Shown here piece after piece: positions 8,913 through 47,605 of a stretch of 64,000 nt of DNA. The position numbers and the translations under genes are program-made. The DNA comes from Alphaproteobacteria bacterium (GTDB lineage Bacteria > Pseudomonadota > Alphaproteobacteria > JAAXGF01), in the NCBI GenBank assembly GCA_963555825.3, contig CAUVXB020000002.1, forward strand, positions 800,001-864,000, written 5' to 3'. The stretch's first letter is position 1; every line of letters begins with the position of its first letter. The notes under the pieces are model-generated. The model did no database searches, was not told the DNA's origin, and was given only the letters and a program-made list of their open reading frames with translations.

Positions 8913-9030
8913 ACGCGGACGGACCCCTCTCGGCCTCCAGCGAAGCCCCCATTTTGCCCGCGATGACGGGAGGATATGGTACATCCTCGCAGCGCTGCGG
9001 GGGCCGAACCGCGTGCGCCGAAGGGATGTC

Positions 9031-9492
9031 ATGAGCGTCGACAATATGCAGCCGTCCAAGCGAGACGAACCGGACGATCGGGCCCTGTTCAATCGCCTTG
9101 TCGTGGCGTACCGGCGCGGCGAGGTTGCTATCGATATCGACGCGGCTGCGCTGGGACATCCCCATTGCCCCTTGTCGGCAAAGGTTTATTCGACGCGCGC
9201 GTTCTATGCGATCGTCGCCGTGGTCGGCCTGTCGTTCGCGGTGTTCGGTTATGAAGTGGCGATTGGCGCCACGGTGGGATCGCTCGTGTTTTACTGGATC
9301 GTCGGCCGCCGCCTGGTGCATCGCAAGATGCGGGCGTTCGCCTGCGCACAGATCACGGGCAACGTCGAGCTGTGGCGGAAGATGTGGCGTTTCGGCGCCA
9401 TCACCCTGTCGCGGGTAACGGCAGACGGTCCGCTGCACTGCCGCGCGCCGGAGGAGAGTTGGCGTGCATTTTCCAGAGACTGCAAAACTTGA
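9031..9492 (+). CDS. Hypothetical membrane protein
   Basis: 153-aa ORF with two hydrophobic helices, ATG after AAGGGA. Confidence 0.65.
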   Translation: MSVDNMQPSKRDEPDDRALFNRLVVAYRRGEVAIDIDAAALGHPHCPLSAKVYSTRAFYAIVAVVGLSFAVFGYEVAIGATVGSLVFYWIVGRRLVHRKMRAFACAQITGNVELWRKMWRFGAITLSRVTADGPLHCRAPEESWRAFSRDCKT

Positions 9493-9896
9493 ACGGTGCC
9501 TCGGGCTATTTCGGGCATGCCCTCGACGCCGGCCATGCGGATTTTGGTATTTCGCCGTTCGACGTCTGCCGATCGCGCCGGACCGCAGGTTCGTCTCCGA
9601 CCTCGAGAGCACGGCCGCGCTGGACTAGAAACGGCGGCGGAAAGCCCGCGGTTCCGATCGACGCCACCGATGTTCGCTGACCGCTCCAAACCGGACGCCG
9701 GAAACGAGATCGCTGGACGCCTCCTAATGCCTCTTTGCGGACCCCGGGGATGAAGGTCACGGCGATTGCTCGGTGGCCAAGCGAATGGCACTGACGGCTA
9801 CATTGTTGTAGCATGCAAAATACGAACAGATGAGTCGGACCCGATTTCCTTGGACACAGAATTGGCTTAATCGAAGTGTCCAAGGAGGACCGGAAC

Positions 9897-10307
9897 ATGA
9901 CCGACAATTTTGAGAACAAAGTTGCTGTTGATGGGCCTGTGGTAAACGAGGGCGAGCTTGGCTCGTCCACGTTTTCCCCGGGCCAGGTTTCGCCGGCAGG
10001 CCCGCTGGGACTTGGCCAGCGGTGGACGGTGACGCGCAAGCGTGAGGTTGCCCTGCGGCTTTTGCGTGGCGAGCCGGTGGAACTTTTGTCGCGGCAGTTG
10101 GGCGTGGAGATTTTCCGGCTCGAGCAGTGGCGTGAGAAGGCGATCGCCGGGATCGATGCCTCGCTCAAGGAACGCAAGGGCGATCCGGTGAAGGCGGAAC
10201 TGGACATCGCCATGAAGCGGATCGGGGAGTTGATCATGCAGGTGGAACTGCTGGAGGCCAAGACGGAGACGTCCGGCCCTTTGGGGCGGCGGAGGTCGCG
10301 GCGATGA
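9897..10307 (+). CDS. IS OrfA (HTH transposase subunit)
   Basis: RWTVTRKREVALRLLRGE..LSRQLGV HTH; ATG after AGGAGG (alternative GTG 9876); ATGA overlap with OrfB. Confidence 0.85.
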   Translation: MTDNFENKVAVDGPVVNEGELGSSTFSPGQVSPAGPLGLGQRWTVTRKREVALRLLRGEPVELLSRQLGVEIFRLEQWREKAIAGIDASLKERKGDPVKAELDIAMKRIGELIMQVELLEAKTETSGPLGRRRSRR

Positions 10308-11215
10308 GTGCCGCCACCTCTCCCGGCACGGGTTTGGCCTACGGCCTCCAGCGGGTCTGTGCGGCCTGGGGTTTTGCCCGTTCCTCGTTCTACGCCATGA
10401 AATCCCGGCAGCAGGCCACCGCTGAGCGCCCACCAGCAAAGCGCCGGGGACCGAAGCCCTCGATCTCGGACGAGGCTCTGCTGGTGGCCATCGAGGCCGA
10501 CCTGGAGGCATCCCCCTGGGAGGGCGAGGGACACCGCAAGGTCTGGGCTCGGCTTCGGGTCTGTCGTGGCATCCGTGTTTCCCGCAAGCGGGGGCTCCGG
10601 GTGATGCGCGAGAACAACCTGCTCTCGCCCCATCGCTGCCGCCGCCGTGGCGGAAATCCCCATGTCGGTGAGATCATCACCCATGCCCCCAACCTCATGT
10701 GGGGCACGGACGGCGTTCGGGTGTTCACGGTGGACGACGGCTGGGGCTGGATATTCACCGCCATCGAGCATTGGAACGCCGAGTGCGTCGGCTGGCATGT
10801 GTGCAAGCGAGGCGACCGCTTCGCCGCCCTTCAGCCGATCTCCATGGGGCTTGCGAGGCTGTATGCCTCGACCTCCGCCGGTGCGGCGCGGGGGCTGGCC
10901 TTGCGGATGGATCACGGCTCCCAGTATCTGTCGGACCACTTCACCAACCAGATCAAGTTCTGGGGCATCCAGCCGTCCTACGCCTTCGTCGAACAGCCCC
11001 AGACCAACGGCGTCGCCGAGAGGTTCAATCGCACGCTCAAGGAACAGATCATCCATGGCCGCATCTACCGCAACATCGCGGAGCTGCGGAACGCCGTCCG
11101 CGGGTTCGTCGAACAGTACAATGCCCAGTGGATCGTGGAGAAGAACGGCTACCTGAGCCCCGCTCAAGCTCGTCAGGCGTGGCACACCGCGATGTCACTC
11201 AGGCCCGCCGCATGA
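10304..11215 (+). CDS. IS OrfB, integrase-core (DDE) transposase
   Basis: WGTD, RMDHGSQY, NGVAERFNRTLKE motifs. Confidence 0.92.
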   Translation: MSAATSPGTGLAYGLQRVCAAWGFARSSFYAMKSRQQATAERPPAKRRGPKPSISDEALLVAIEADLEASPWEGEGHRKVWARLRVCRGIRVSRKRGLRVMRENNLLSPHRCRRRGGNPHVGEIITHAPNLMWGTDGVRVFTVDDGWGWIFTAIEHWNAECVGWHVCKRGDRFAALQPISMGLARLYASTSAGAARGLALRMDHGSQYLSDHFTNQIKFWGIQPSYAFVEQPQTNGVAERFNRTLKEQIIHGRIYRNIAELRNAVRGFVEQYNAQWIVEKNGYLSPAQARQAWHTAMSLRPAA

Positions 11216-11282
11216 GACAAACTTGTGTCCAAGGAACCGGGTGCGATACAAAAATACGAACAGATATAAGGGGCATCGGAAC

Positions 11283-11531
11283 GTGAAGAGAATCATAGCT
11301 ATCACGCTAACGTGCTTTATCGCGTTATCGTCAAGCGTGGTTTCATCGCAGGTCGTCGCTGCTGAAGACAAAGATCTTGCGGCCGTGGCCATCGACAACA
11401 AGGGCAAAGTAGTAGGGTTGGTCGTCGGCTGCGTGGTGGCCTTCCCAGTTGGGTGCATCATAGGTGCAGTTGCTGGGGTGGCCTATGATGAAGTCGTTGA
11501 GCCGATGATAGTTGGTGAGGACGGCAGATAG
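11283..11531 (+). CDS. Small exported/membrane protein with glycine-zipper-like segment
   Basis: GTG after AAGGGG; signal-peptide-like N-terminus; GLVVGCVVAFPVGCIIGAVAG; lower GC. Confidence 0.55.
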   Translation: MKRIIAITLTCFIALSSSVVSSQVVAAEDKDLAAVAIDNKGKVVGLVVGCVVAFPVGCIIGAVAGVAYDEVVEPMIVGEDGR

Positions 11532-11630
11532 GATTGCGTGGCGTCGTCGCGGTCGTTACCGCGTAGACGGCCGGCGACGCGCCCTGTCGTCACTGATTTC
11601 AGCGATTGCGACCATCGGCTTCAGTATTCG

Positions 11631-11789
11631 TCACTGCTGCCGGACACCCTGCGGGTGGCTTGCGACCAACCGATCTATAACCTGGCGGTACGTATTCAGC
11701 GTTGCCAGGGTCGCTTCCTTGTCGGCCTCCATGAGGCGCGAATAGCACACCACGTCGGCAGCGGGTATGGCCGCGAGGCGGCGCTCCAT
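11631..11789 (-). pseudogene. Truncated N-terminal remnant of a class III adenylate cyclase
   Basis: MERRLAAIPAADVVCYSRLMEADKEATLATL...Q* after RBS GGGAGG; same motif as the intact cyclase at 6970. Confidence 0.8.
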
Positions 11790-11995
11790 GTGACGGCCTC
11801 CCTTGTCGGTGAGACTAGCGAGTTTCAGTGGAAGAATCTATCTGCGGAGAGAATCCTCGATTTGCCGCCTTGTGGTAGTTTCCGGACATCCAGCGGTTGG
11901 TATCGCGGGGTCCGCTTCCCATTCGCAAGCGGAATTGAGAGGCCGAAAGTCCATCCCCGCTTATCGGTCGATGCGGTTCCCGCCGCCGCCGGAAA

Positions 11996-12472
11996 TTACT
12001 GAGCCATGGCATCGTTGCCGAGGAAGAGGATGGCGATGCCGACCACGATACAGGCGCCACCGACCAACTGGCGCCACGACAGCGTCTCCTTGAAGACCAG
12101 ATAACCGACGACCATGGTGATGACGATCGTGCCCGAAACGATGACCGGCACGGCGACGGTCGCCGGCATCGGCTTGACGTCGCCGATGCCGCCGAACAGG
12201 TAGAAGTAAGCGATCTCGGCGCCGCCGATGCAAATGCCGGCCGCCGCGGCCCAATGATACGCGGTCGTCGGCAGCGCCAGGCTGTGCCCGCCACGCAGAA
12301 CGACGAATGCGATGAACGCCATCGACGTCGAGAGCGCCGCGAGCTGCAGGCACACCGTCGCCAGGATGGTCGACGTCGCCTCGGCCGGGACATGCGATCC
12401 CGACACCTTGATCAAGAGATTGTAGCCCGCGTAGAGCAGCGTGACCGTGACAAGCAAAAACGTGCTGACCAT
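11996..12472 (-). CDS. Small EamA/DMT-like membrane transporter
   Basis: 158 aa, about 5 TM, LVFKETLSWRQLVG EamA-type motif; divergent from LysR. Confidence 0.75.
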   Translation of the reverse strand: MVSTFLLVTVTLLYAGYNLLIKVSGSHVPAEATSTILATVCLQLAALSTSMAFIAFVVLRGGHSLALPTTAYHWAAAAGICIGGAEIAYFYLFGGIGDVKPMPATVAVPVIVSGTIVITMVVGYLVFKETLSWRQLVGGACIVVGIAILFLGNDAMAQ

Positions 12473-12664
12473 TTCTCCCATCCCCTCAAACATTCATCCG
12501 CACAACCGACCGCGAGAGCAACAAGTACTGTCACGGACCGGTCCCTGGCGCCATCCGATAGCCTATTCGATCCTCGTCGGTGGTTGTCGATTTCCTCCGA
12601 CTTGATTTGTCATCGGGATTTCTCGACGATACCGGCGTCTATCAGCCGAAGGAGGAAACCGCGG

Positions 12665-13627
12665 ATGGCGGCGAGCAACCGCAATGCCCAAAGCGCGGAG
12701 ACGCAACCGATGACGGGCCGTCGGTTCGCACAGTCGCTCGACTGGAACCTGCTGAGGACCTTCTACCAGATCGTCCAGGCCGGCGGCATCAGCGAAGCCG
12801 CGCGGCGCAGCAGCCGCAAGCAGCCGGCGTTGAGCATGGCGCTCAAGCGGCTCGAGGACCACGTCGGCGCGCGGCTCTGCCGGCGCGGCCCGGGCGGCTT
12901 CAAGCTCACCCGCGAGGGCGAGCTGCTGGCCGAGACCTGCGGCGCGCTCTACGGCGGCGTCGCCAACATTCCGCACTCGGTCGCCAACGTGGCCACCGAC
13001 GTCCACGGCCGGGTCCGAATCCAGTTGATCAGCAACCTGGTCGACCCGCGCATCGACGACGCCATCCAGTCGTTTCACCGCGCCCACCAGCTGGTCGAAC
13101 TCTTCATCAGCGTCGCCACGTGGGACGTCATTCAACGCAGCGTGCTGCGCGACGAGGTCGAGATCGGCATCGCGCCGAGCCATCACCGGGATTCCGACCT
13201 GCGCTACGAGCTGTTGTTCCACGAGGTTTACCGGCCCTACTGCGGACGCTCGCACCCTTTGTTCGGCGTCACCGCCGACCGTCCCGCCGACCTCGCCGCT
13301 TACCCCTTTATCCTGACCGGCGCCGACGAACCCTACCAGCAGACCAAGTTCCGCCAGCGCTATGGCCTGGGCCGCCACGTCGCGGGCCTCTCCGAGCACC
13401 TCGAGGAAGCGCGCCGGATGACCGTGCTCGGCCTCGGCCTCTGCTTCCTGCCCGAGGCGTTCGTCGCGCGCGAAACGGAAAGCGGCCACCTGCATCCGGT
13501 ATTGGGGTCGGATAACAACCCGTCGTCGGAGATTTCCGTCATTTCCCATCCCCAGGCGCCGCCGCACCGGGCGCGCGACCTGCTGTTGGAGCACTTCCGC
13601 GACGTCATGCCCCTAACACGAAAATGA
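12665..13627 (+). CDS. LysR family transcriptional regulator
   Basis: LDWNLLRTF...GGISEAA...QPALSMALKRLE HTH plus substrate-binding domain. Confidence 0.93.
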   Translation: MAASNRNAQSAETQPMTGRRFAQSLDWNLLRTFYQIVQAGGISEAARRSSRKQPALSMALKRLEDHVGARLCRRGPGGFKLTREGELLAETCGALYGGVANIPHSVANVATDVHGRVRIQLISNLVDPRIDDAIQSFHRAHQLVELFISVATWDVIQRSVLRDEVEIGIAPSHHRDSDLRYELLFHEVYRPYCGRSHPLFGVTADRPADLAAYPFILTGADEPYQQTKFRQRYGLGRHVAGLSEHLEEARRMTVLGLGLCFLPEAFVARETESGHLHPVLGSDNNPSSEISVISHPQAPPHRARDLLLEHFRDVMPLTRK

Positions 13628-13661
13628 GAGACCGCAACGCGAACCTAGTCGATCGTTGTAG

Positions 13662-13678
13662 CATCAGTTACATTGATG
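13662..13678. promoter_or_regulatory. Putative LysR box (T-N11-A palindrome) upstream of the ABC operon
   Basis: catca-gttacat-tgatg in an AT-rich intergenic region. Confidence 0.6.
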
Positions 13679-13804
13679 ATAATCATCGGGTTAATGGACC
13701 TATTACCTAATTCCGCGAATGTTTAGAATGATTTGTTTGGGATTCCAAATACCGATCCAGAGACATCGTCCGAAAGCGGCGAAGCACTGGTTGGAGGGCG
13801 CTTG

Positions 13805-14677
13805 GTGGAACACGAAACGGCGGCCGAACGGTCGCTGAAGGATGGCATGGCGGCGTCCGAAGAAGCCGCACCGCGCCACAGGGAACGGTTCTTGGAGTTG
13901 CTGTCGCCGCCCTCGGCGCGCCGCTCGGCAGTGCTGGGGGTCGTTGGCGCCATTGTCTTTTTCGCCGTCTGGGAGGCCGGCCATTACGCGACACCCGAAG
14001 CGGGCCAGCGCTTCCTGCCGGCGGTCGAGCAGGTCGTGGGCAAGCTCATCTTCCTGTTCACCGAAAAGGGCTTCCTGACAGATGTGGCGGTCAGTTGCAT
14101 GCGCATCTTCGGCAGCTTCTTCATAGCCTCGCTCATCGCCGTGCCGCTGGGCATCGCCATGGGCTGCTTCGGCAGCCTGAAGGCGCTGGTCAACCCGACC
14201 GTGTCGGGCTGGCGATATCTGCCAGCGGCCTCCTTCATCCCGCTGCTGCTTGTCTGGTTCGGCCCGTCCGAGACGGCCAAGATCGCGCTGCTGATCCTCG
14301 GCGTCGTTTTCTTCCTCGTCGCCATGGTGCTCGACAATACCGAGGCGGTTCAACGCGAGTTCATCGAGGCGGCGCTCACCATGGGCGCGAGCCGCACGCG
14401 CATCGTCTTCGAGGTCGTGGTGCCGGCGGTATTCCCGGCCATCATCGATTCGATGCGTACCATGATCGCCGTAGGGTGGACCTATCTGGTCATCGCCAAG
14501 ATCGTCGGCGCCCAGGACGGCATCGGCGCGGTGATGATGCGCGCCGGGCGGTTCCTGCATGTCGACATCATCATGGCCGGCATCATGATGATCGGCATTC
14601 TCGGCGTTCTGACCGACATCCTGTTCCGCGTCGCCTCGCGTTTTCTCTTCCCGTGGAATGTCGCGCGAAAGGTTTGA
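13805..14677 (+). CDS. ABC transporter permease (NitT/TauT type)
   Basis: EAA motif FIEAALTMGASR; RYLPAASFIPLL; start uncertain (GTG 13805 after GGAGG). Confidence 0.88.
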   Translation: MEHETAAERSLKDGMAASEEAAPRHRERFLELLSPPSARRSAVLGVVGAIVFFAVWEAGHYATPEAGQRFLPAVEQVVGKLIFLFTEKGFLTDVAVSCMRIFGSFFIASLIAVPLGIAMGCFGSLKALVNPTVSGWRYLPAASFIPLLLVWFGPSETAKIALLILGVVFFLVAMVLDNTEAVQREFIEAALTMGASRTRIVFEVVVPAVFPAIIDSMRTMIAVGWTYLVIAKIVGAQDGIGAVMMRAGRFLHVDIIMAGIMMIGILGVLTDILFRVASRFLFPWNVARKV

Positions 14678-14680
14678 CGG

Positions 14681-15493
14681 ATGACCGAACGCAGCCAGCC
14701 GGACACCCTGCCCAGAGACGCCGTCGTGGCGCGCAACATCACCAAGCAGTACGTGAAGGGCACGTTCACGGCGCTCGACGATATCACCCTGACGCTCCAC
14801 GAGAACCAGTTCGTCTGTTTCATCGGTCCGTCGGGCTGCGGCAAGACGACCATGCTGCGCCTGATCTCCGGGCTCGAGATGCCGACCCGCGGACGGCTTT
14901 CGACTTTCGGCGAGGCGATCGGCGGGCCGGGACCGGACCGCGGCATGATCTTTCAGGCCTATACCTCGTTTCCCTGGCTCACGGCTCGCAAAAACATCGA
15001 ATACGGCATGAAGATCGTCGGCGTGCCCAGGGCCGAGCGCGAGCAAAAGGCGACCGAGATGCTCAAGTTTGTCCATCTCGAGGATTTCGAGAACAGCTAT
15101 CCGCACAGCCTGTCGGGCGGCATGAAGCAGCGCGTCGCTCTCGCCCGCACTCTGGCGCAGGACCCGCAGGTTTTGCTGATGGACGAGCCCTTCGGTGCGC
15201 TCGACGCCCAGGTCCGCTGGGAAATGCAGGAAATGATGATCGAAGTCATCGAGCGCGAGAGCAAGACGGTGATCGCCGTCACCCATGACATCGAGGAGGC
15301 CATCTATCTCTCCGACCGAATCATCTTCTTCACCCGCCAGCCTGGCCGCATCAAGGCCGACATCGCGCTTGAGTTCAAGCAGGGGCGGCGCTTTCCGCGC
15401 AAGGAGGAACTCTTCGAGCAGCCGGGCTACGTCGAAATGGAACGCCAGCTTTTCGCCATGATGCGCGAGGAGATCACCGGCAGCGCAGCCTGA
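14681..15493 (+). CDS. ABC transporter ATP-binding protein (NitT/TauT type)
   Basis: GPSGCGKT, LSGGMKQR, LLMDEPFGALD. Confidence 0.95.
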   Translation: MTERSQPDTLPRDAVVARNITKQYVKGTFTALDDITLTLHENQFVCFIGPSGCGKTTMLRLISGLEMPTRGRLSTFGEAIGGPGPDRGMIFQAYTSFPWLTARKNIEYGMKIVGVPRAEREQKATEMLKFVHLEDFENSYPHSLSGGMKQRVALARTLAQDPQVLLMDEPFGALDAQVRWEMQEMMIEVIERESKTVIAVTHDIEEAIYLSDRIIFFTRQPGRIKADIALEFKQGRRFPRKEELFEQPGYVEMERQLFAMMREEITGSAA

Positions 15494-15559
15494 ACGATGG
15501 CGCTGTCGGCAACGATCGAAAATCGAGATCCGATACCGTATCCAGCAAGGGAGGAAGCC

Positions 15560-16726
15560 ATGAGAAGTAATAAACGTCTAATTCGAACGACCGCCGCGTT
15601 GGCGCTGATCGCCGGCATCGCGGGCGGCTTGGCGCTGGCGGCGCCGTCGCCGGCGCGGGCAGCCGAAGAGATCGACATCGCCATCATCTCTTTCTCACCC
15701 TACGCGCCGTGGTACATCGTCAAGGAAAAGGGCTTGGCAAAGGGCCTCGACATCAACGTCCGCCTCATCGAGGACATCACGGCCAAGAACGCCGCCGTCA
15801 CCAGCGGTAGTGTGCCCTGTATGCTGAACACCCTCGACTCGGTTGTCGTAGCGCGCGCCGCCGGTGTGCCGCTCAAGGTCATCGCCGTACCGGCGATGTC
15901 CTACGGCCTCGACGAGATGGTGGTCGACGCCTCGATTACCTCGGTCGACCAGTTCCCGGGCAAGAGCTATGGCGCCGACTACGCCTTCCTAAACCACATG
16001 TGGATGCTGTTGACGCTTAAGAACGCGGGCCTCCCCCTCGATGCCCTGTCGCACAAGATCATGTTGCCCCAGGACAGCGCCGCTGCGTTCGTCAGCGGTG
16101 GCCTCGACATCGACGTCAATTACAAGCCGTTCTCCACGCAGTCACTGACGCGGTCGGGCGCCCATGCGCTCAAGACCAGCCTCACCGACCGGACATGGGA
16201 GCGCGGGTTGATTTCGGAAGCCATTGCCTGCAACGAGACCTGGCTCAAGGAAAACCCGGACACCGCCAAGGAGTTGCTGCGCGCCTGGTTCGAGGCCGTC
16301 GATTGGTGGAAAGAGAACCCGGTTGAAGGCAACGATTTAATTGCCAAAGGCCTCGACTGGCCGGTCGCCGATGTCAGGGAGACCCAATACGGCGCCATCA
16401 TGCTGAGCCTCGACCAAAACCTCGGTGCCTTCGGCATCGGCGGTGGCAAGCCGGTCTGCGCCAGCCTGCCCGACGGGGCGCCCGAGGGGCCCTCGGAGCC
16501 GAGCGGCTGGGGCGCCTCCCTGTTCGGCGGCCGACCGGATTGCGAGGCCGGCTATCTGCCCGCCACCTGGGACCTGTTCAATAGCGTCTACAGAGAGGCT
16601 GGGGTCGTCGACACCACCGCCATGGCCAGTGACGGTCTCGACACGAGCGTTCTGGAAGCACTCGTCGCCGACGGAATCGATAAGACGTACATGTCCAACG
16701 CCTGGATCGGGCGGGTCGGGCTGTAA
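15560..16726 (+). CDS. ABC substrate-binding protein (NMT1/SsuA-like)
   Basis: Signal peptide after GGGAGG RBS; operon position; SYGLDEMV motif. Confidence 0.85.
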   Translation: MRSNKRLIRTTAALALIAGIAGGLALAAPSPARAAEEIDIAIISFSPYAPWYIVKEKGLAKGLDINVRLIEDITAKNAAVTSGSVPCMLNTLDSVVVARAAGVPLKVIAVPAMSYGLDEMVVDASITSVDQFPGKSYGADYAFLNHMWMLLTLKNAGLPLDALSHKIMLPQDSAAAFVSGGLDIDVNYKPFSTQSLTRSGAHALKTSLTDRTWERGLISEAIACNETWLKENPDTAKELLRAWFEAVDWWKENPVEGNDLIAKGLDWPVADVRETQYGAIMLSLDQNLGAFGIGGGKPVCASLPDGAPEGPSEPSGWGASLFGGRPDCEAGYLPATWDLFNSVYREAGVVDTTAMASDGLDTSVLEALVADGIDKTYMSNAWIGRVGL

Positions 16727-16747
16727 TCGCGAGCTGTCGATCGTAGA

Positions 16748-16779
16748 CCGGGCGCTGGATCGCGGGATCCGGCGCCCGG
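16748..16779 (+). other. Intra-operon stem-loop (possible mRNA-stabilising hairpin)
   Basis: ccgggcgctggatc-gcgg-gatccggcgcccgg, no U-tract. Confidence 0.5.
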
Positions 16780-16800
16780 GCAACGCGAGGAGATCATTCA

Positions 16801-17991
16801 ATGCCTGATCCAAAGACCGGCGAGCTGCGCGGCAACCGCAACCTCAATCGCTTGCGGCGCATTTCGCAGACCAAGCAGGACGAGGAGATCAAGCGCAACC
16901 TGGAACTCGGCCTCGAGGCCGCCGCCTCGATCAACGACCGGTCCATCTCGCTGTTCAGCCGCGGTCATCAACCCGCCTTCGCCGGTATCAACACCTTCCT
17001 GAAGATGCCCTACTGCGAAGACATCCGCAATGTCGGCGACTACGAGGCGGCGTTCGTCGGCGTGCCGTTCGACACCGGCACGACCTACCGGCCCGGCACC
17101 CGTTTCGGGCCGCAGGCGGTGCGGCGGATTTCGGCCGTCTACGACGGCTATTCGGTCGACGGCGGCGTCGATCTCTTCGAGGAGCTCGACATCTGCGACG
17201 CCGGCGACGTGTTCGTCATCCCGGGCAACATCGAGAAAACCTTCGACCAGGTTTCGAAGGCGATCTCGCACATCTACACCTCGGGCGCCTTCCCGGTGAT
17301 CTGCGGCGGCGACCACAGCCTCGGCTATCCCAACGTGCGCGGCATCGCGCCGCATATCGAGGGCAACGTCGGCATCATCCATTTCGACCGGCATATCGAC
17401 ATGCAGGACATGGACATGGACGAGCGCATGCACACCACGCCGTGGTTCTGGACTTCCAATGCTCACGAGAGCGTCGACGTCCACGGCACGCACCGCGACC
17501 ACAGCCATATGCACGACATCGGCCTCGACAACTGCCCGCCAAAGAACCTGGTGCAGATCGGCATCGGCGGCTGGTACGGCTCGCGGCCCGGCTCCGAGGT
17601 CGCCAACGAGCGCGGCACCAGCGTCATGACCATGAAGGATGTCGAGGAGCTGGGCGTCCAGAAGGCCGCCGAGATGGCGCTCGAGCTTGCCTGGAAGGAC
17701 GCCGTGGCGGTCTATCTGTCGTTCGATATCGACTCGATCGATCCCGGTTTCGCGCCCGGCACCGGCACCCCCGAGCCCGGCGGCTTCTTGCCCCGCGAGG
17801 CGCTCGAGATGGTCCGCCTGATCGCCCGCGAGGGATTGTGCGGCATGGAAGTGGTCGAGGTCTCGCCGCCCTACGACGTCAACGACAACACCTCGCAGCT
17901 CGCCTGCCGGGTCATGCTCGACGTCCTCGGTACGATGGTCGTCGAAGGCAAGCTCGGCCACCGCGACCGGGTCATGGCGGCCGAGGACTGA
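16801..17991 (+). CDS. Ureohydrolase of the guanidine hydrolase (GdmH)-like clade
   Basis: FSRG...FAGINTF N-terminal extension, GTTYRPGTRFGPQ, GGDHS, HFDRHID, DERMH, SFDIDSID, PEPGG. Confidence 0.85.
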   Translation: MPDPKTGELRGNRNLNRLRRISQTKQDEEIKRNLELGLEAAASINDRSISLFSRGHQPAFAGINTFLKMPYCEDIRNVGDYEAAFVGVPFDTGTTYRPGTRFGPQAVRRISAVYDGYSVDGGVDLFEELDICDAGDVFVIPGNIEKTFDQVSKAISHIYTSGAFPVICGGDHSLGYPNVRGIAPHIEGNVGIIHFDRHIDMQDMDMDERMHTTPWFWTSNAHESVDVHGTHRDHSHMHDIGLDNCPPKNLVQIGIGGWYGSRPGSEVANERGTSVMTMKDVEELGVQKAAEMALELAWKDAVAVYLSFDIDSIDPGFAPGTGTPEPGGFLPREALEMVRLIAREGLCGMEVVEVSPPYDVNDNTSQLACRVMLDVLGTMVVEGKLGHRDRVMAAED

Positions 17992-18030
17992 CATGGCGGG
18001 TGTCGCGGCCGGACGTGATCGCTGTCCGAC

Positions 18031-18720
18031 ATGATTGGCGCGCTGCTTCTCGGCCTGCTGCTCGGCATGCAGCATGCGCTCGAAGCCGACCATTTGGCGG
18101 CGGTGGCGAGCCTGGCGACGAGCGCTCGCTCGCGGCGCGGCATCCTGCGCCACGGCGTCAGCTGGGGCGTCGGCCATATGCTGACGCTCGCGGTCTTCGC
18201 CGGCGCGGTCATCGTCTCGGAACGCACCATCGGCGGCGCCCTCGCCGGCTGGCTGGAAGGCGCCGTCGGCGTCATGTTGGTGCTGCTCGGCGCCAGCGTG
18301 CTGCGCCGCCTCTATCGCGGTCGCATCCACTTCCACGTCCACGACCACGCCGACGACCGGGTCCACCTCCACGCCCACTCCCACGCCGACGACGCGGCGC
18401 CGCACCAGCACTCGACGCACGACCACGAGCATCCACGCGGCGTTCCGTTGCGCAGCCTCGCGGTCGGCATGATGCACGGCCTGGCGGGCTCGGCCGCGCT
18501 GGTCGTGCTGGCGGCGACCGCGCTCAGCTCACCGCTCGAGGGCTTGATCTACGTCGCCCTGTTCGGGCTCGGCTCGGTCGGCGGCATGGCGCTGCTGTCG
18601 TTCGCGATCGCCATCCCGATGCGCCTCACGGCCAACGTCCTGACCTGGACGCACCGCGGCCTGCAGGGCGGCATCGGTTGCGCCACGATCGTCCTGGGCG
18701 GCGTCATCATCCTCGGCTAG
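18031..18720 (+). CDS. UreH/NiCoT-like nickel permease with His-rich loop
   Basis: HALEADHLAAV, WGVGH, HFHVHDH..HLHAHSH, GMMHGLAGS. Confidence 0.88.
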   Translation: MIGALLLGLLLGMQHALEADHLAAVASLATSARSRRGILRHGVSWGVGHMLTLAVFAGAVIVSERTIGGALAGWLEGAVGVMLVLLGASVLRRLYRGRIHFHVHDHADDRVHLHAHSHADDAAPHQHSTHDHEHPRGVPLRSLAVGMMHGLAGSAALVVLAATALSSPLEGLIYVALFGLGSVGGMALLSFAIAIPMRLTANVLTWTHRGLQGGIGCATIVLGGVIILG

Positions 18721-19748
18721 TCGGCGTCGGCGTCGAGCTCGGGATCGGACACCGTGCCGCGGTGCGCTCGGCGGTATTCGTAGGCGTCGGTGATCATGCT
18801 CTCGGTCCATAGGCCGCAGTTGGTCGGCGGGTAGCGCGCGGGATTGCCCGGGCCGGTACAGCCCGGCAGCGTGCGCACCACCGTCCTGTAGTTGGCGCCG
18901 AAGAAGAACGGCATCGAATAGCGCGCGCGGTCCGCCGTGTTGATCACCCGGTGCGGCGTCGAGACGAACCGTCCGTTGGTCCAGCGCATCATCATGTCGC
19001 CGATGTTGACCACGAATGTGCCGGGGATCGGCGGCGCCTCGACCCAGTCGCCCGCCCTGTGGCCGACCTGGAGACCGCCGGCGTCGTCCTGCCACAGGAT
19101 CGTGAAGCACTCGTAATCGGTGTGTGGACCGATGCCGATCCGTTTCGGCTCGATCGGGCCCTGGCGCGACGGATAGTAGATCAACCGCAACTGCGCCATC
19201 GGCTTGTCGATATTGTCCTCGAAGAAGTCCTCGGGCAGGTCGAGGGCCATTGCGAACGCGCGGAACAGAAAGTGGCCGAGGTCGAGGACCCGCTCGAAGT
19301 AGCCGTAGACTGCGGGCCGGAACGACGGCAGCGCCGCGGGCCAGACGTTCGGCCCGTACATGATGTTGCCGGCCAGGTAGTCCGGGTCTTCGTCGCCCAG
19401 CTCCAACGAGACCTCGTAGCCTTCCTGAAAATCCACCTCGGCCGTCGGACCGGCATAAAGCCCGCCCAAGGGGACGTAACCGCGGTGGCGCTGGAGTTTC
19501 GCGATGTCGAGATCCATCTTGGCCTCGAGCGGCAGCGCGAAGAAGTCCCGCATCGCCATCTGCGCGCCGTCGATCACCGTCTGCGGGATGCGATGGTTCT
19601 TGACGTAGAAGAAGCCGACGTTCCGGCAGGCGTCGTCGAGCGCCTCGGCGACCGTCAATTTGTCGCGACGGTCGCCGAGAATCAGACCGTCGATGTCGAT
19701 GACCGGAATCTCGTCGTCCCGGATCGATCGTGCGTCGAGGTCAGCCAT
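18717..19748 (-). CDS. Isopenicillin N synthase family 2OG-Fe(II) oxygenase
   Basis: IPVIDI, GFFYVKNH, HTDY, STPHRV, RYSMPFF. Confidence 0.92.
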   Translation of the reverse strand: MADLDARSIRDDEIPVIDIDGLILGDRRDKLTVAEALDDACRNVGFFYVKNHRIPQTVIDGAQMAMRDFFALPLEAKMDLDIAKLQRHRGYVPLGGLYAGPTAEVDFQEGYEVSLELGDEDPDYLAGNIMYGPNVWPAALPSFRPAVYGYFERVLDLGHFLFRAFAMALDLPEDFFEDNIDKPMAQLRLIYYPSRQGPIEPKRIGIGPHTDYECFTILWQDDAGGLQVGHRAGDWVEAPPIPGTFVVNIGDMMMRWTNGRFVSTPHRVINTADRARYSMPFFFGANYRTVVRTLPGCTGPGNPARYPPTNCGLWTESMITDAYEYRRAHRGTVSDPELDADAD

Positions 19749-21168
19749 GCCGAACCGAAGCGATCGCAGGCCGTCCCGTGAGCGGCCGCCGCGCCTCGAT
19801 CGCTCGGGCGACGCGGAACACGGTGACGTCGTCGTAGGGCCGCCCGGCGATCTGCACGCTGGTCGGCAGGCCGCCCGTCGTCATGCCCGACGGCACGGCG
19901 AGCACCGGGCAGCGGCCGAACATGTTGAACAACCCGGTCATCGCCCAGTCGCTCGCGCCGACCGGCTTGCCGTTGACGCGCAGGCTGTCGTCCCAGGGTT
20001 TCATGTCGGCGGCGACCTCGTGGGTCGCGACGGTCGGGCAGACGAAGGCATCGAAGCTGCGGAACAGCGGCCCAAGATGTTCCCACCAGACGCGCCCCGC
20101 GACGGTCATCGCGCGGTGGAAGTCGGCCGCCGTGACGGCTTCGTTGTAGCGCGCGAAATAGGGCGTGTAGTCGCATACCAGGTCAGCGTGGTCGCGCACC
20201 GCGGCGGTGAAGTCGTCGGCGTAGATATGCGCGCCCCAGGCATGCGACGCCTCGACCGCCTCGCCGGCCCAGTCGACCGCGACCTCGCTGACCACCGCAC
20301 CGGCCTCGGCGAGCGCCGCGACGGCGGCCGCGGTCTCACGGCGGACATCGGCATGCACCTCATAGCAGCCGAGGTCGATCGAATAGGCGATCCGCAAACC
20401 GGCGATGCCCTTCGGCTCGCCAGGGATGCGCAGCTTGGGCCGCACCGTGTTGTGATCGAGCGGATGCGGGCCGGCCATGGCGTTCTGCATCAGCGCGCAG
20501 TCGGCCACCGTGCGGGCCATCGGGCCAATGTGGAAATAGGCGTCGTTGTTGTAGGCCGCGACGTTGGGGTTGCGCCCGAACGGCGGTTTGAAGCCGACGA
20601 CACCGCACAGCGCTGCCGGGTGGCGGATCGAGCCGGCGCTGTCCGAGCCGGTCGCCAGCGACGTCGTGCCGGCGGCCAGCGCGGCGCCCGAACCGCCCGA
20701 CGACGAGCCGGAAGTGAACGCCGGGTTCCACGGATTGCGCGTCACGCCATAGCGCTTGGAATAGCACACCCAGGGCCAGACGAACTCGGGGCAGGTGGTG
20801 CGCGCATGCACGATCGCGCCGGCGCGGATCAGCCGCCCGACCGAGGGGTTGGTCGGCCCCGTCACCTGGTTGGCGGGCACCAGCGAGCCGGCGGTGCCCG
20901 GCTTGCCGGCGATCGCCGTGTCGTCCTTGACCGCGAGCGGCAGGCCCTCGAGCGAGCGCGGCCGGCCATCGGTCTTGGCGTATTTCGCCTCGGCCTTCTT
21001 CGCCCGCGCCATCGCCTCGTCGAAGTAGCGCGCGGCGAAGGCGTTGATCACCGGCTCGACCGCCTCGGCGCGGGCGATCACCGCGGCCATCAGCTCGACC
21101 GGCGACAGCGCGCGGCGCTTGAAGCGCGCCAGCGCCTCGGCGGCCGGCATGTAATGGAGATCGGCCAC
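19741..21168 (-). CDS. Amidase signature family protein
   Basis: GLPLAVKD, GSSSGGS, GSDSAGSIRHPA; GTG after AGGGG. Confidence 0.9.
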   Translation of the reverse strand: MADLHYMPAAEALARFKRRALSPVELMAAVIARAEAVEPVINAFAARYFDEAMARAKKAEAKYAKTDGRPRSLEGLPLAVKDDTAIAGKPGTAGSLVPANQVTGPTNPSVGRLIRAGAIVHARTTCPEFVWPWVCYSKRYGVTRNPWNPAFTSGSSSGGSGAALAAGTTSLATGSDSAGSIRHPAALCGVVGFKPPFGRNPNVAAYNNDAYFHIGPMARTVADCALMQNAMAGPHPLDHNTVRPKLRIPGEPKGIAGLRIAYSIDLGCYEVHADVRRETAAAVAALAEAGAVVSEVAVDWAGEAVEASHAWGAHIYADDFTAAVRDHADLVCDYTPYFARYNEAVTAADFHRAMTVAGRVWWEHLGPLFRSFDAFVCPTVATHEVAADMKPWDDSLRVNGKPVGASDWAMTGLFNMFGRCPVLAVPSGMTTGGLPTSVQIAGRPYDDVTVFRVARAIEARRPLTGRPAIASVRHG

Positions 21169-21179
21169 GGCGTCCCCCT

Positions 21180-22370
21180 TCAGTCCGCGCCGCACACGGC
21201 GAGCGCGCTGAGATAGTAGACCTTCGCGGCGGTCAGGAAATCGGCGACCGCGATGCTCTCGTCCGGCTGGTTGATGTCGTCGACCTTGCCGGGCCCGTAG
21301 ATCACCGTCGGGATGCCGGCGCGCAGCAGGTGCGAGGCGTCGGTGCCGAAGAACACCTGCGGTATCAGCGGGCCGATGTGGGGCGCCGCGCCGCACACCG
21401 CCTGATGGACCGCGGCGACGGTGCGGACGATCGGTTCGTCGTGTGCCACGCGGTAGGGGTACTGCTGGCAGAACGCCGGCGGCTGCAACAGCTCGACCGC
21501 CACAGTGCCCGTCTCGACTCCCTCGATCGCGCGCTCGATGTCGGCCTTTACCCCGCCGGGCGTCATGCCCGGCACGGTGCGGACGTCGATCAGCGCCTCG
21601 GCCTGCGCGGCGAGCATCGACGGTACGCCGCCGCCCGCAATCGAACCGACGTTGAGCGTCGGCAGGCCGGGAAACTCGTCGTGCGGCTCGAAGCGCAGCA
21701 CGCCTTCGTCGAGCGCGCCGAGCGTCGCGACCAGGCCGTCGATCGCGTTGCGGCCGGCGGAACGCTGGCAAATGTGGGCGCTCACGCCCGACACGCGGAG
21801 CCTGAGCTGGGTGACACCCGCATGCGCCGTCAACAGGTTGAGGTCGGTCGGCTCGCCGTTGATCGCCGCGTCCGCCGTGACGCCTTGGCCGAGCATATGG
21901 GTGGTGCCAAGGCCGAGCGCATCGCATTCGCCGATCACGGCCGAGAGGACGACGCGGCCGCCGAGGCCGTCGGTGTCGCGCGCGAGCGCCGCCATGCAGC
22001 CGATCATGGCGCCGACCGCGGCCTTCATGTTGTTGATCTCGGCGCCGAACAGCCGGTCGCCGATGCGCCGCGGCGTATAGGGATCGGCGGTCCCGCCGAC
22101 GGGCACCGGCAGGGTGTCGAGGTGGCCGTTGAACAACAAGACGGGCCCCGGCCGGCCACTATCCAGCGTCGCGATCACGTTGCGCCGGCCGGCCAGCACT
22201 TCCTGCTCGACGACGTCGAGGCCGAGGCCGCGCAACGCGTCGGCGGCCCAGCGCGAGATCGCGTCTTCCGCGCCCGAGACGCTCGGCTGCGACACCAGCG
22301 CCTCGACCGCGCCGATGACCTCGCTCTCGTCGATCGCGGCGGTGCGCGCGGTGTCGGGAAACCCTGTCAT
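21180..22370 (-). CDS. M20/ArgE-DapE family hydrolase with atypical metal motifs
   Basis: LFNGHLDT, NGEPT, GTDA, YGPG; NNMKA and GECD in place of the usual DMKG and DEE. Confidence 0.8.
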   Translation of the reverse strand: MTGFPDTARTAAIDESEVIGAVEALVSQPSVSGAEDAISRWAADALRGLGLDVVEQEVLAGRRNVIATLDSGRPGPVLLFNGHLDTLPVPVGGTADPYTPRRIGDRLFGAEINNMKAAVGAMIGCMAALARDTDGLGGRVVLSAVIGECDALGLGTTHMLGQGVTADAAINGEPTDLNLLTAHAGVTQLRLRVSGVSAHICQRSAGRNAIDGLVATLGALDEGVLRFEPHDEFPGLPTLNVGSIAGGGVPSMLAAQAEALIDVRTVPGMTPGGVKADIERAIEGVETGTVAVELLQPPAFCQQYPYRVAHDEPIVRTVAAVHQAVCGAAPHIGPLIPQVFFGTDASHLLRAGIPTVIYGPGKVDDINQPDESIAVADFLTAAKVYYLSALAVCGAD

Positions 22371-22907
22371 GCCGTGCATTATCGCCAAATTCGACGCGAA
22401 GTGACAGCCGGCTTGCAAGCGATTATTCTTCATCGCCCCGCACCATCGCCCACCGAGCAGCGCCCGTATGTCCGCCAGCTTTCCGCATCTCTTCTCGCCG
22501 CTCACCCTCGGGCCGCTGACGATCAAGAACCGGATATTCTCGACCGGCCACATGACCATGATGGTCGAGCATGGCAAGCCGACCGACGACCTGGTCGCCT
22601 ATCATGCGGCGCGCGCGGCGGGCGGCGCCGGGCTGATCATCACCGAGGCGGCGCGCGTCCACGCCTCGGGGGTGTCTGGCGGTAGCGCGCTCGATGCGTC
22701 GCGTGACGACTGCATCGAAGGATACGGCCGCATCGCCCGGGCGGTGCACGCGCATGGCTGCGCCGTGTTCGGCCAGCTGACCCATTCTGGCCGGGTGATG
22801 TACACCTCGGGCGACGGCACCCGGCCGGTCCCTTACGCGCCATCGACGCTGCCCGACGAGCGCTTCCACAACATGCCGCGCGCGATGCCGGTTTCGATGA
22901 TCCACGA

Positions 22908-27382: not shown

Positions 27383-27450
27383 GTCAATCGGATTTCAGGA
27401 GTCGCCAATCGAATTTCGCGCGCCACCACCCTATAGAACGAAGTTTTTTT

Positions 27451-27520
27451 AATTGGAGTCGGGAACCATTTATCTTACTGTATTTATTCAATAACAATGG
27501 TGTCTGACCCCAGATTATTT
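27451..27520. repeat. REP-like inverted doublet with AT-rich spacer (copy A)
   Basis: aattggagtcgggaaccattt ... aatggtgtctgaccccagatt between convergent genes. Confidence 0.6.
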
Positions 27521-27586
27521 AGACTCACGGTTGTGAGCGTCGGCCGCGTCGACGTTCGATCGACGCCGCCCGAGGCGAGGTGGCGC

Positions 27587-38347: not shown

Positions 38348-39032
38348 TTTCCCCCTCATCGACACTAGACCGGTAAATGCGATGCGCGCCCACCGTTCCG
38401 ATTAGCCCACGAGGCGATGGGCGAAAGTCGATGCGTAAAATTTTGGCCCAGCCACCGTTGTGGTGTCTGGTATCGCCTCACGAACTCGTGAACGATAACA
38501 ACCCGCACAACTTCGGGCAAGACGGAAGAGGTTTACCGACCATTTCGGATCCGGTCCGATCGATCAACGGACATTCGCATGGCTCGATAGGCGCACCTGT
38601 GCGGCGCGCGCTTGACCGCCATTCTCGATGCGCCGGTTCGATTTCGGCCATTCCAGATCAACCTATCTTCGGGAAGGTTCGGATGACGGGATGATCGCGA
38701 ATGGCCATGTGAAATCGTCAACGTCGCAATTCGATCACCAGCCTGATGACGATCACCGCCGCGACGGCGCCCAGCAGCCAAAACACGATCTCCACCGGCA
38801 TGCCGAGAACCATGGCGCCGGTCTCGGTCGACGGTTGCGCCGCCGTTTCCGCCGGTTGCTCTCCGAAGTCGCCAGCGAACACAGCGAGCGAGCTCGCCAC
38901 CAGCGCCAACAATATCAGTTGGATGACGGCGCAGTCGATGCGCGACATGCCGCTATCGTCCCGGAGGAACGTGCCGATGCTGCGCGGCAAGTGTTCGTGT
39001 ATCGCACCCGGTTCCTTGGACACAAGTTTGTC

Positions 39033-40351: not shown

Positions 40352-40476
40352 GTTCCGGTCCTCCTTGGACACTTCGATTAAGCCAATTCTGTGTCCAAGG
40401 AAATCGGGTCCGACTCAGCGGCAAGTGTTCGAAAATCGACGTCTTCATTATCCAGATGCGCTCGCCCTTTCAGGCG

Positions 40477-47535: not shown

Positions 47536-47605
47536 GTTCCGGTCCTCCTTGGACACTTCGATTAAGCCAATTCTGTGTCCAAGGAAATCGGGTCCGACTC
47601 AAGGA

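Follow-up and report, generated by a model that had tools for sequence, protein, structure and literature searches.

A LysR-linked ureohydrolase operon of the guanidine hydrolase lineage, possibly acting on a substituted guanidine

The operon described here is proposed to be controlled by LysR and to let the cell take up and hydrolyse a small guanidine with an N-substituent, methylguanidine being the most likely one; we place about even confidence in this reading. The reaction would most likely yield methylamine and urea. The genes occupy positions 11996-18720 of the 64-kb stretch of DNA analysed (the window), where an EamA transporter gene, a divergent LysR gene, a dyad, a NitT/TauT-type ABC importer, a ureohydrolase and a His-rich permease follow one another:

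11996-12493, minus strand: small single-domain EamA (DMT) transporter, 165 aa (PF00892, E 2e-07), divergent from lysR
12666-13627, plus strand: LysR regulator (HTH_1, E 1e-16; LysR_substrate, E 2e-28)
13662-13678, no strand: putative dyad operator, CATCAGTTACATTGATG, between lysR and the permease gene
13733-14677 (ORF), plus strand: ABC permease, NitT/TauT type (BPD_transp_1, E 7e-20)
14681-15493, plus strand: ABC ATPase (ABC_tran, E 3e-31), SaoA-like and TauB-like below the model cut-offs
15497-16726, plus strand: periplasmic substrate-binding protein, NMT1/SsuA family (NMT1, E 3e-12; SsuA_fam, E 3.5e-23, below cut-off)
16801-17991, plus strand: ureohydrolase, arginase family, 396 aa (PF00491, E 4e-78)
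17449-17514, plus strand: clade-specific insertion after the catalytic-His loop (residues about 217-237), ending H231-R-D-H234-S-H236-M-H238
17575-17583, plus strand: Tyr259-Gly260-Ser261 in place of the Gln-Val-Pro of guanidine hydrolases
17767-17769, plus strand: ACC codon of Thr323, which stands where guanidine hydrolases have their specificity Trp (W305 in Synechocystis, W313 in N. inopinata)
18031-18720, plus strand: six-helix His-rich membrane protein, probable NicO/UreH-like nickel permease

The operon and its enzyme

The initial annotation had outlined a LysR gene, a T-N11-A box, a permease-ATPase-SBP-ureohydrolase-nickel permease operon and a divergent DMT gene, and all of these are present where it placed them. 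Intergenic gaps within the five-gene operon measure 3, 3, 74 and 39 bp. The likely start of LysR is ATG 12666, judging by AGGAGG at 12652, and that of the ABC permease is ATG 13847. The closest NCBIfam models of the permease, TauC and SaoP, are both under cut-off; the substrate-binding protein has a signal-peptide-like stretch from Met22, and a search for an informative solved relative of it found none. The neighbourhood recurs in part of the clade, with LysR in 33 of 62 loci, permease homologs (59-71% identity) in 12 other loci and binding protein homologs (57-79%) in 14. EamA homologs of 56-63% identity adjoin the ureohydrolase in L009, L017 and L034, and full-length EamA genes lie near the enzyme in 18 of 61 related loci. 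Further along the same 64-kb stretch lie a creatinase-like M24 gene (26201-27382) and a DAO-FAO_M-GCV_T gene (28522-32094).

Two solved Ni-dependent guanidine hydrolases, at ~60% identity, are the closest solved relatives of the ureohydrolase (9fek, E 1.6e-134, 452 bits; 7esr/7oi1, E 8.7e-133, 446 bits), followed by guanidinobutyrase at 165 bits and guanidinopropionase at 145. The metal ligands H172, D196, H198, D200, D309 and D311 are intact, as are all six in 62/62 members of its clade, and residues equivalent to T97, H222 and E344 are retained. The motifs first read from the sequence are real, namely FSRG...AGINTF, GTTYRPG, DERMH, GGWYGSR (residues 256-262) and TGTPEPGG (321-328). At the aligned positions both solved enzymes carry GGWQ(A/V)PR and TGWPEPGG. 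The reported replacement of Trp extends across the clade, where 19 of the 62 members have Thr and the other 43 have Ser; the QVP position reads YGS in 28, YGN in 30 and otherwise in 4, and QVP is kept in 8/8 Trp-type relatives. Excerpts of PMC11410670 describe the Trp at the W305/W313 position as setting guanidine specificity, and a figure legend there labels relatives lacking the T105/W313 pair "inferred not guanidinase". The altered pocket that had been proposed is borne out at the level of sequence, and it supports a clade substrate other than free guanidine, and only that much.

A tree of 56 rows built with IQ-TREE places the ureohydrolase in a 31-row clade (SH-aLRT 99), apart from 8 Trp-type rows and an actinobacterial group. 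The predicted sister clade is a separate one, in a tree that does not settle the order in which the three groups branch. The wider sample comprised 62 clade sequences, with neighbours counted over 61 or 62 loci and compared with 11 actinobacterial and 8 Trp-type loci. All 62 members carry the motif HxxHxHxH within an insertion of 17-31 residues, as against 0/19 members of the other two groups, and 61 of them have Cys245; the initial annotation had overlooked this insertion. In the alignments neither solved guanidine hydrolase contains the insertion. An AlphaFold model of the ureohydrolase falls under pLDDT 50 at residues 92-96 and again at 204-239, a segment that includes the insertion, and any role of the HxxHxHxH segment is presumptive. 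We came across no published characterisation of the clade in our literature searches.

Regulation and nickel supply

The clade has lost the guanidine-I riboswitch, present in 8/8 Trp-type loci and in 0/16 clade loci. A search of 9000-24000 for guanidine riboswitches gave no hit, nor did one for Guanidine-I across the whole genome, in keeping with the absence noted earlier. According to excerpts of PMC12508155, methylguanidine is not bound by this riboswitch. LysR homologs are found next to the enzyme instead (the 33 loci above), and LysR control, as originally suggested, is further favoured by a conserved operator. The dyad has a T-N11-A core running from T13664 to A13676. Of 31 LysR-adjacent regions of 320 bp taken from related loci, 20 contain its pattern CATYR-N7-YRATG, compared with a mean of 0.155 loci and a maximum of 1 over 200 shuffles. 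LysR probably binds the dyad at 13662-13678; with the substrate or a product as presumed effector, it would activate the operon and so stand in for the riboswitch.

Nickel permeases of the NicO-like or HupE/UreJ type were detected by tblastn near the enzyme gene in 19/61 loci. These are unrelated families that occupy the same position directly downstream of the enzyme, the NicO-like type in the window and 7 other loci, HupE/UreJ in 9. Across 9 homologs of the His-rich permease, H15-x4-D20-H21 and eleven loop histidines do not vary, and 7 of these homologs match Pfam NicO at E <= 0.01 (best 4.7e-09). The suggestion of a nickel supply holds up on these counts, but the label "UreH-type" is approximate, as the window permease reaches 17.1 bits against a NicO cut-off of 27.7 (E 0.0038). 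HypA was not found in the 99.3%-complete genome, as first stated; both hypB and hypA are present in L023. From this context the ureohydrolase is probably nickel-dependent.

Neighbourhood evidence and candidate substrates

In the proposed pathway, the binding protein and the ABC permease and ATPase would import the compound, with the direction of transport presumed. As a binuclear-metal enzyme from the lineage of GdmH, the ureohydrolase would then split it into urea and methylamine, using nickel that the His-rich permease would supply. Urea would pass to the urease present in the genome, and methylamine to its N-methylglutamate pathway; a gmaS gene, 66% identical to that of L027, adjoins SoxA/B-like genes at C2:2.528-2.535 Mb.

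The case for methylamine comes from the neighbours of related enzymes. Glutamine synthetase (GS)-like genes resembling glutamate-methylamine ligase occur in the fetched flanks of 17/61 clade loci, 0/11 actinobacterial and 0/8 Trp-type loci, in at least seven gene orders; about ten of the 17 loci come from soil Hyphomicrobiales that are close relatives and share a single gene order, so these loci are not independent. The L026 representative finds its best solved match in "Glutamate--methylamine ligase" 9qur at 384 bits, compared with <=256 bits for ordinary glutamine synthetases. In L027, a Glu_synthase-domain gene, a GmaS-like gene, SoxB/D/A+G-family genes and the ureohydrolase run head to tail on one strand, an array that looks like a complete N-methylglutamate pathway. 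Formate-THF ligase neighbours the enzyme in 3 loci and FolD does so in L035. In 5 loci LysR and the enzyme are separated by a permease above the NCBIfam cut-off for "trimethylamine N-oxide permease". Hosts of the clade include Hyphomicrobium and Methyloceanibacter. The enzyme of L023 comes immediately after genes matching metformin hydrolase alpha (653 bits) and beta (617 bits). The methylamine-pathway neighbours and this shared operon support the substituted guanidine, such as methylguanidine, put forward in the initial annotation.

Several observations count against methylguanidine. No methylamine gene lies directly beside the window operon, and the fetched flanks of 44/61 clade loci, many of them on short contigs, yielded no GmaS-like gene. 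This reading does not account for the commonest accompanying module, which consists of TetR, AllG-like, MetX-like alpha/beta hydrolase and FMN reductase genes (14-17 loci each). The SoxBDAG-type neighbours in L022 and L027 would equally fit sarcosine as product, with creatine as substrate, and the binding protein family is better known for sulfonates, nitrate and bicarbonate.

Another substituted guanidine, be it ethyl-, hydroxy-, amino- or N,N'-dimethylguanidine or guanylurea, with its amine product taken by the GS-like ligase, is possible but doubtful. The pocket changes exclude only free guanidine, and GS-like ligases of such a type could accept small amines other than methylamine, hydroxylamine being a classic substrate of GS. 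The L026-type ligase is only 37% identical to the canonical L027-type GmaS, and the AllG-like/MetX-like hydrolase/FMN reductase module hints at chemistry beyond methylamine. Methylguanidine is nevertheless favoured by the ligase's best solved match, by the L027 array, and by methylotroph hosts and C1-folate neighbours. An unlikely reading is a guanidino-acid hydrolase that would convert creatine, guanidinoacetate or taurocyamine into sarcosine, glycine or taurine plus urea. It draws on the sarcosine-oxidase-family genes of L022 and L027, the SsuA/TauA-like binding protein, and the creatinase-like M24 and DAO-FAO_M-GCV_T genes of the window, with a further creatinase-like gene in L034. However, Sox-family genes adjoin the enzyme in only 2/61 loci, and those of L027 sit with GmaS-like and Glu_synthase-domain genes in the pattern of an N-methylglutamate pathway. 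An amino-acid product would also leave the 17 loci with GmaS-like genes unaccounted for, and the enzyme keeps a closed GdmH-type architecture with its N-terminal extension and scores far lower against guanidinobutyrase and guanidinopropionase, as given above, than against guanidine hydrolase.

It is quite unlikely that the enzyme is an ordinary guanidine hydrolase, a GdmH orthologue with LysR regulation replacing the riboswitch. The identity, the retained T97, H222 and E344 equivalents and metal ligands, an ABC importer of the same general kind and the accompanying nickel permease would suit it; the loss of the specificity Trp throughout the clade, the published label for such relatives, the riboswitch distribution and the separate clade all argue against it, as does the match to 9fek, which reaches 571 bits for a true Trp-type enzyme versus 452 for the window protein. 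A Mn-dependent agmatinase, as database names ("agmatinase" or "agmatinase family protein") would have it, is highly improbable. NCBIfam agmatinase models do match, but under their cut-offs (206 versus 302 bits, 164 versus 174), solved agmatinases reach <=116 bits, and the operon comes with nickel permeases and no polyamine genes.

Comparison with known systems

The nearest known enzymes, GdmH (Synechocystis Sll1077, 7ESR/7OI1) and the N. inopinata guanidinase (9FEK), align with the window enzyme over nearly their full length and share its N-terminal extension, six metal ligands and T97/H222/E344 equivalents. Both kinds of system use a NitT/TauT-type ABC importer and would pass urea to urease. 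Unlike GdmH, the window enzyme has Thr (Thr/Ser in the clade) for Trp, YG(S/N) for QVP, and the HxxHxHxH insertion with its Cys; its system has LysR and the dyad without the guanidine-I riboswitch, in a genome without HypA, and its clade is separate in the tree.

DmgH/MefH (8RYI, 8SNF, 8X3G) belong to the same ureohydrolase family, at only 27-30% identity. Excerpts of PMC11399263 report that they act on methylated guanidines, require nickel and are accompanied by HupE-type nickel permeases, that methylguanidine is not hydrolysed, and that they are alpha2-beta4 heteromers of tandem genes, in contrast to the single-gene window enzyme. DmgH/MefH-type genes and a clade enzyme share one operon in L023, where the alpha homolog reads PGSTSPE against PGTGWPE in GdmH (aligned by eye), suggesting Ser at the Trp position.

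The proposed reaction is that of the methylguanidine amidinohydrolase of Alcaligenes sp. N-42, which we take to be EC 3.5.3.16. This activity has been known since Nakajima et al. 1980 (cited in PMC12623156, as seen in excerpts), and the literature searched, the 1980 original aside, names no gene or metal for it. MgdH/MgdL of Vreelandella boliviensis, described in excerpts of PMC12508155, have the same presumed substrate and are likewise linked to an ABC importer. Their route is oxidative: a 2-OG dioxygenase and a lyase give guanidine and formaldehyde, feeding a riboswitch-controlled guanidine carboxylase, whereas the window enzyme would yield methylamine and urea in one hydrolytic step.

The operon and its genome

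The ureohydrolase of the window is encoded within a five-gene operon beside a LysR regulator. Every gene named in the initial annotation was found by ORF listing and profile searches, and the motifs it quoted are all present, including Thr323 (codon ACC, 17767-17769).

11996-12493, minus strand: single-domain EamA transporter, 165 aa
12666-13627: LysR regulator with HTH_1 and LysR_substrate domains, start placed by AGGAGG-N8-ATG
13733-14677: ORF of a BPD_transp_1 permease, likely start ATG at 13847
14681-15493: ABC ATPase
15497-16726: NMT1/SsuA-type binding protein
16801-17991: arginase-family protein (PF00491), 396 aa
18031-18720: His-rich membrane protein, 229 aa

The gaps between the five operon genes are 3, 3, 74 and 39 bp, and a promoter and terminator scan gave nothing above chance. 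The BPD_transp_1 permease, ABC ATPase and NMT1/SsuA-type binding protein are encoded together, which is the make-up of a NitT/TauT-family importer. Its substrate is left unassigned because the substrate-specific NCBIfam models (TauC, SaoP, SaoA and SsuA_fam) all matched below their cut-offs; a search of solved structures returned no informative relative of the binding protein.

A convergent trio on the minus strand (18717-22577) encodes a DIOX_N/2OG-Fe(II) oxygenase, whose stop overlaps that of the His-rich permease by 4 bp, an amidase and an M20 deacylase-like protein. These genes were rejected as parts of the system since they are not conserved neighbours: the oxygenase has no match in 80 related loci, and amidase-like matches (28-34% identity) occur in four. 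A composite transposon was likewise set aside. Two 100% identical 1427-bp copies of an insertion sequence (IS) bracket 27.7 kb including the operon, but with about 85 near-identical copies in the genome the pair carries no particular weight as a sign of mobility. The 1.42-kb element (143-aa orfA, 303-aa rve-domain orfB) is present on both contigs at 99.8-100% identity, with window copies at 9831-11257, 38991-40417 and approximately 46182-47601; its copy number looks like a recent expansion.

Urease and UreG are encoded on the other contig of the genome (6.04 Mb, 2 contigs, 99.3% complete). The genome also carries gmaS, a glutamate-methylamine-ligase gene 66% identical to that of the related locus L027, beside SoxA/B-like genes at 2.528-2.535 Mb of contig C2. 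With urease and gmaS present, the genome can use both proposed products of the enzyme, urea and methylamine.

Several other features of the window were recorded. A second ureohydrolase (49383-50435; PF00491 E 6e-84), one of 15 PF00491 matches in the genome, lies in a stretch (48393-53361) with a divergent TauD-family dioxygenase (48393-49238, minus strand), a polysaccharide-deacetylase/PuuE-like gene (50443-51333) and a 673-aa ORF lacking any Pfam match (51340-53361). The region 23121-32094 holds a UPF0236 transposase-like gene, an Oxidored_FMN protein that matches profile positions 147-341 only and may be truncated, a creatinase-like M24 gene (26201-27382), a choline-kinase-like gene and a 1190-aa DAO-FAO_M-GCV_T ORF (28522-32094). 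An 888-aa caspase-domain (Peptidase_C14) protein occupies the left end of the window (203-2869, minus strand), and a serine recombinase, a DUF2924 gene and IS21-type IstB and transposase genes occupy the right end (58703-63669, minus strand).

A ureohydrolase clade and its regulation

The window protein scores 263 bits against the PF00491 profile (cut-off 22) and keeps the binuclear-centre ligands H172, D196, H198, D200, D309 and D311. Its best matches among all solved structures are the nickel-dependent guanidine hydrolases (GdmH) of Nitrospira inopinata (9FEK, E 1.6e-134, 452 bits) and Synechocystis (7ESR/7OI1, E 8.7e-133, 446 bits), followed by a guanidinobutyrase at 165 bits. The alignment to 9FEK/7ESR runs from about residue 20, so that an N-terminal extension is common to the window protein and GdmH-type enzymes. 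According to PMC11410670, the guanidine specificity of GdmH rests on Thr97 and Trp305. The equivalent of Thr97 is kept (T94/T95 invariant), and that of Trp305/Trp313 is absent, being Thr323 in the window protein. An insertion of about 21 residues is absent from both solved guanidine hydrolases in the printed alignments. The AlphaFold model has a mean pLDDT of 80 but drops under 50 at residues 92-96 and 204-239, precisely where the insertion and the Thr loop lie, and gives no guidance on either the pocket or the insertion.

Searching one genome per species yielded 80 loci with relatives of 56-91% identity, and the alignment splits into three groups. All six metal ligands are intact in 81/81 aligned sequences, the HDHDDD pattern being present in 62/62 members of the window's clade.

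Table. Ureohydrolase groups: residue at the Trp position; residues 259-261; insertion
Group A, Proteobacteria including the window (n=62): Thr 19, Ser 43; YGS 28, YGN 30, other 4; 17-31 extra residues, with HxxHxHxH in 62/62 and Cys245 in 61/62
Group B, Actinobacteria (n=11): Ser 9, Thr 2; YGS 9, IGN 2; none
Group C, Trp-type (n=8): Trp 8; QVP 8; none

In a maximum-likelihood tree of 56 rows (47 of the 81 sequences and 9 outgroup ureohydrolases), group A is supported at SH-aLRT 99 (31 rows), group B at 92 and group C at 87. The window protein thus belongs to a clade separate from GdmH, as had been proposed from the sequence. The three groups together split from the outgroups at 93, and the tree leaves the order among them unfixed. 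A group-C protein reaches 571 bits against 9FEK, compared with 452 for the window protein, which identifies group C as the true GdmH type; a group-B protein scores 470 bits against 7ESR. In an Extended Data legend of PMC11410670, relatives without the T105/W313 pair carry the label 'inferred not guanidinase', so Trp-less relatives are already acknowledged in print; no functional work on them was found in the literature searched. Distribution among relatives is patchy: an orthologue (E <= 1e-100) occurs in 3 of 12 same-family genomes and none of 28 other-family genomes of the class (40 relatives searched). A plasmid collection held no clade member, its best matches being 54-62% identical.

Regulation separates the groups further. 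At Rfam gathering thresholds, the Guanidine-I riboswitch is found in 8/8 group-C loci, directly upstream of the hydrolase in seven and upstream of the binding-protein gene in L083, in contrast to 0/16 group-A loci with any guanidine riboswitch. The window agrees with the initial annotation, which had seen no ykkC-like riboswitch: positions 9000-24000 contain no RNA family above chance, guanidine riboswitches included, and Guanidine-I has no match in the whole genome. Instead, a LysR gene adjoins the enzyme in 33/62 group-A loci, and a 17-bp dyad, CATYR-N7-YRATG, is kept in 20 of 31 regions examined, 27-57 bp past the lysR stop in most. Shuffled sequences give a mean of 0.155 loci and a maximum of 1 (200 shuffles). 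The window copy (13662-13678) contains the T-N11-A box noticed initially and is the predicted LysR operator. A Guanidine-I riboswitch is reported to bind guanidine, not methylguanidine (PMC12508155, section 6), a specificity that fits a change of sensor.

Group B carries a Guanidine-III element in 3 of 9 loci, all Actinomycetospora (L067:9429-9499, L069:9500-9566 and L070:9429-9501, minus strand), just downstream of a Ser-type, insertion-less hydrolase and on the opposite strand. Rfam '5_ureB_sRNA' matches in five of eight Trp-type loci (L073, L078, L083, L087 and L088) indicate that urease genes lie a few kb away from the guanidine hydrolase under riboswitch control.

Proposed nickel supply

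Nickel/cobalt transporters of the NiCoT type bear an H-x4-D-H motif in their first helices and a His-rich loop. In the window membrane protein this motif (H15, D20, H21) and eleven loop histidines are invariant among nine homologs. The protein itself scores 17.1 bits against Pfam NicO (cut-off 27.7), and its homolog in L028 reaches 36.4; NicO matches at E <= 0.01 in 7/9 homologs (best 4.7e-09), and DsbD_2 also matches in 6/9. This type of putative permease directly follows the enzyme in seven loci besides the window on the gene-order map, and a HupE/UreJ protein (Pfam E 3e-44, 2e-50) does so in nine others. By tblastn, one or the other occurs in 19/61 loci, which supports the nickel-supply neighbour first suggested for the window. 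Two unrelated nickel-permease families in the same slot are the best available evidence, drawn from gene context, that the enzyme uses nickel.

The absence of hypA/hypB noted initially also holds, HypA being missing from the window's genome. Among clade loci, L023 alone has hypA and hypB, upstream of the enzyme. This absence discriminates weakly, since HypA/HypB are not adjacent in 8/8 Trp-type loci sampled and HypA/HypB-like accessory genes (GhaA/GhaB) are missing from comammox bacteria too (PMC11410670). The idea that the His-rich insertion replaces HypA/HypB was not retained and is speculative.

Substrate and comparison with known systems

Clustering and annotation of 683 flanking ORFs from 62 group-A loci revealed several recurring neighbours whose predicted functions point to methylamine. 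A glutamine synthetase (GS)-like ligase, with representatives above the NCBIfam type-III cut-off, occurs in 17/61 group-A loci, 0/11 of group B and 0/8 of group C, in at least seven gene orders. Against solved structures, the L026 ligase scores 384 bits to the 'Glutamate--methylamine ligase' 9QUR and 303 to 7CQL, versus at most 256 to ordinary glutamine synthetases. Locus L027 holds a head-to-tail array made up of a Glu_synthase-domain gene, the ligase, members of the SoxB, SoxD and SoxA+G families and the ureohydrolase. Mgs and Mgd subunits are homologous to glutamate synthase and sarcosine oxidase. The N-methylglutamate pathway genes are gmaS, mgsABC and mgdABCD (10.1101/356014), and the L027 array, by predicted family, is the make-up of this pathway. 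Other neighbours include formate-THF ligase in three loci, FolD in L035, GFA-domain genes in L033 and L034 and, between LysR and enzyme in five loci, a permease above the NCBIfam 'trimethylamine N-oxide permease' cut-off. Group-A hosts include Hyphomicrobium and Methyloceanibacter; isolates carrying the gene are, for example, Hyphomicrobium facile DSM 1565 (L035), Hongsoonwoonella zoysiae (L022), Primorskyibacter flagellatus (L029) and Mesorhizobium sp. KR9-304 (L038).

In L023, the enzyme directly follows genes matching metformin hydrolase alpha (653 bits) and beta (617 bits). The dimethylguanidine/metformin hydrolases (DmgH/MefH) hydrolyse dimethylguanidine or metformin, not methylguanidine (PMC11399263), and an additional enzyme acting on the monomethyl form would complement them naturally. 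The full array in this Rhodospirillales MAG (L023:4593-11115, one strand) comprises hypB, hypA, the MefH/DmgH-alpha-like and -beta-like genes, the clade-A ureohydrolase, a MetX-like hydrolase and an FMN reductase. Such an array could be one operon serving mono- and dimethylguanidine together.

Other observations weigh against methylguanidine as substrate. No methylamine gene adjoins the operon in the window, and the ligase is absent from the fetched flanks in 44/61 loci. About ten of the ligase-positive loci are not independent because they share one gene order in related soil Hyphomicrobiales. The most frequent accompanying module (TetR, AllG-like, MetX-like alpha/beta hydrolase, FMN reductase) is unexplained. 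Creatine would also suit as substrate, yielding sarcosine, and the Sox-type neighbours fit that conversion as well as they fit the N-methylglutamate pathway.

In 14-17 loci (L032, L041, L044, L052, L054, L056 and others), this module is placed upstream of both LysR and the enzyme gene, and the GS-like ligase often accompanies it. Its TetR has a BetI-type C-terminal domain, its AllG-like protein is PF06545 and its MetX-like protein NCBIfam PRK07581; a ligase and hydrolase pair of this kind is also found in the window's genome (C2:1586337-1588721).

Taken together, the substrate of the enzyme is probably a substituted guanidine and not free guanidine, and gene context makes methylguanidine an evenly balanced candidate for it. 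The fullest reading is tentative and rather unlikely: the clade would supply the missing methylguanidine amidinohydrolase gene, its product being a nickel enzyme that is widespread among bacteria of ocean and soil and feeds the methylamine (N-methylglutamate) pathway and urease, and the invariant HxxHxHxH-plus-Cys insertion would act as an additional metal site for capturing or inserting nickel in place of HypA/HypB-type chaperones. The observation of the initial annotation is confirmed, and all in-silico tests that could be applied support its interpretation as a substituted-guanidine utilisation operon. That interpretation gains strength from the insertion shared across the clade, the contrast between riboswitch and LysR control, the presence of two permease families and the neighbours from the methylamine pathway.

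If the clade is a methylguanidine hydrolase, an orphan activity from 1980 gains a sequence, and the nickel-dependent ureohydrolase branch would extend from guanidine through methylguanidine and dimethylguanidine to metformin. Many metagenomic 'agmatinase' genes (over 120 clusters with >=87% identity in one search) could then be re-annotated, and guanidino-compound turnover would be tied to marine and soil methylamine cycling. The natural swaps Trp to Thr/Ser and QVP to YGS offer a means of testing pocket size against specificity in this family.

The window system resembles GdmH operons in its importer, its predicted nickel ureohydrolase and the use of urease downstream. It differs in lacking both the specificity Trp and riboswitch control, and for these reasons the enzyme is not filed as GdmH. 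Nor is it DmgH/MefH: those enzymes are heteromers of tandem alpha and beta genes, whereas the window enzyme is a single gene, 27-30% identical to the tandem genes of L023. No gene for methylguanidine hydrolysis and no study characterising the group-A clade were found in the full-text literature searched; in the MgdH paper of October 2025 (PMC12508155), the Introduction, the Discussion and the section 'Genomic context of mgdH' name no methylguanidine hydrolase. The only genetically defined methylguanidine route in that literature is the oxidative pair MgdH/MgdL, published in 2025. The reaction proposed for the window enzyme, methylguanidine + H2O -> methylamine + urea, would correspond to the methylguanidine amidinohydrolase that Nakajima et al. 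described in 1980, as cited in PMC12623156.
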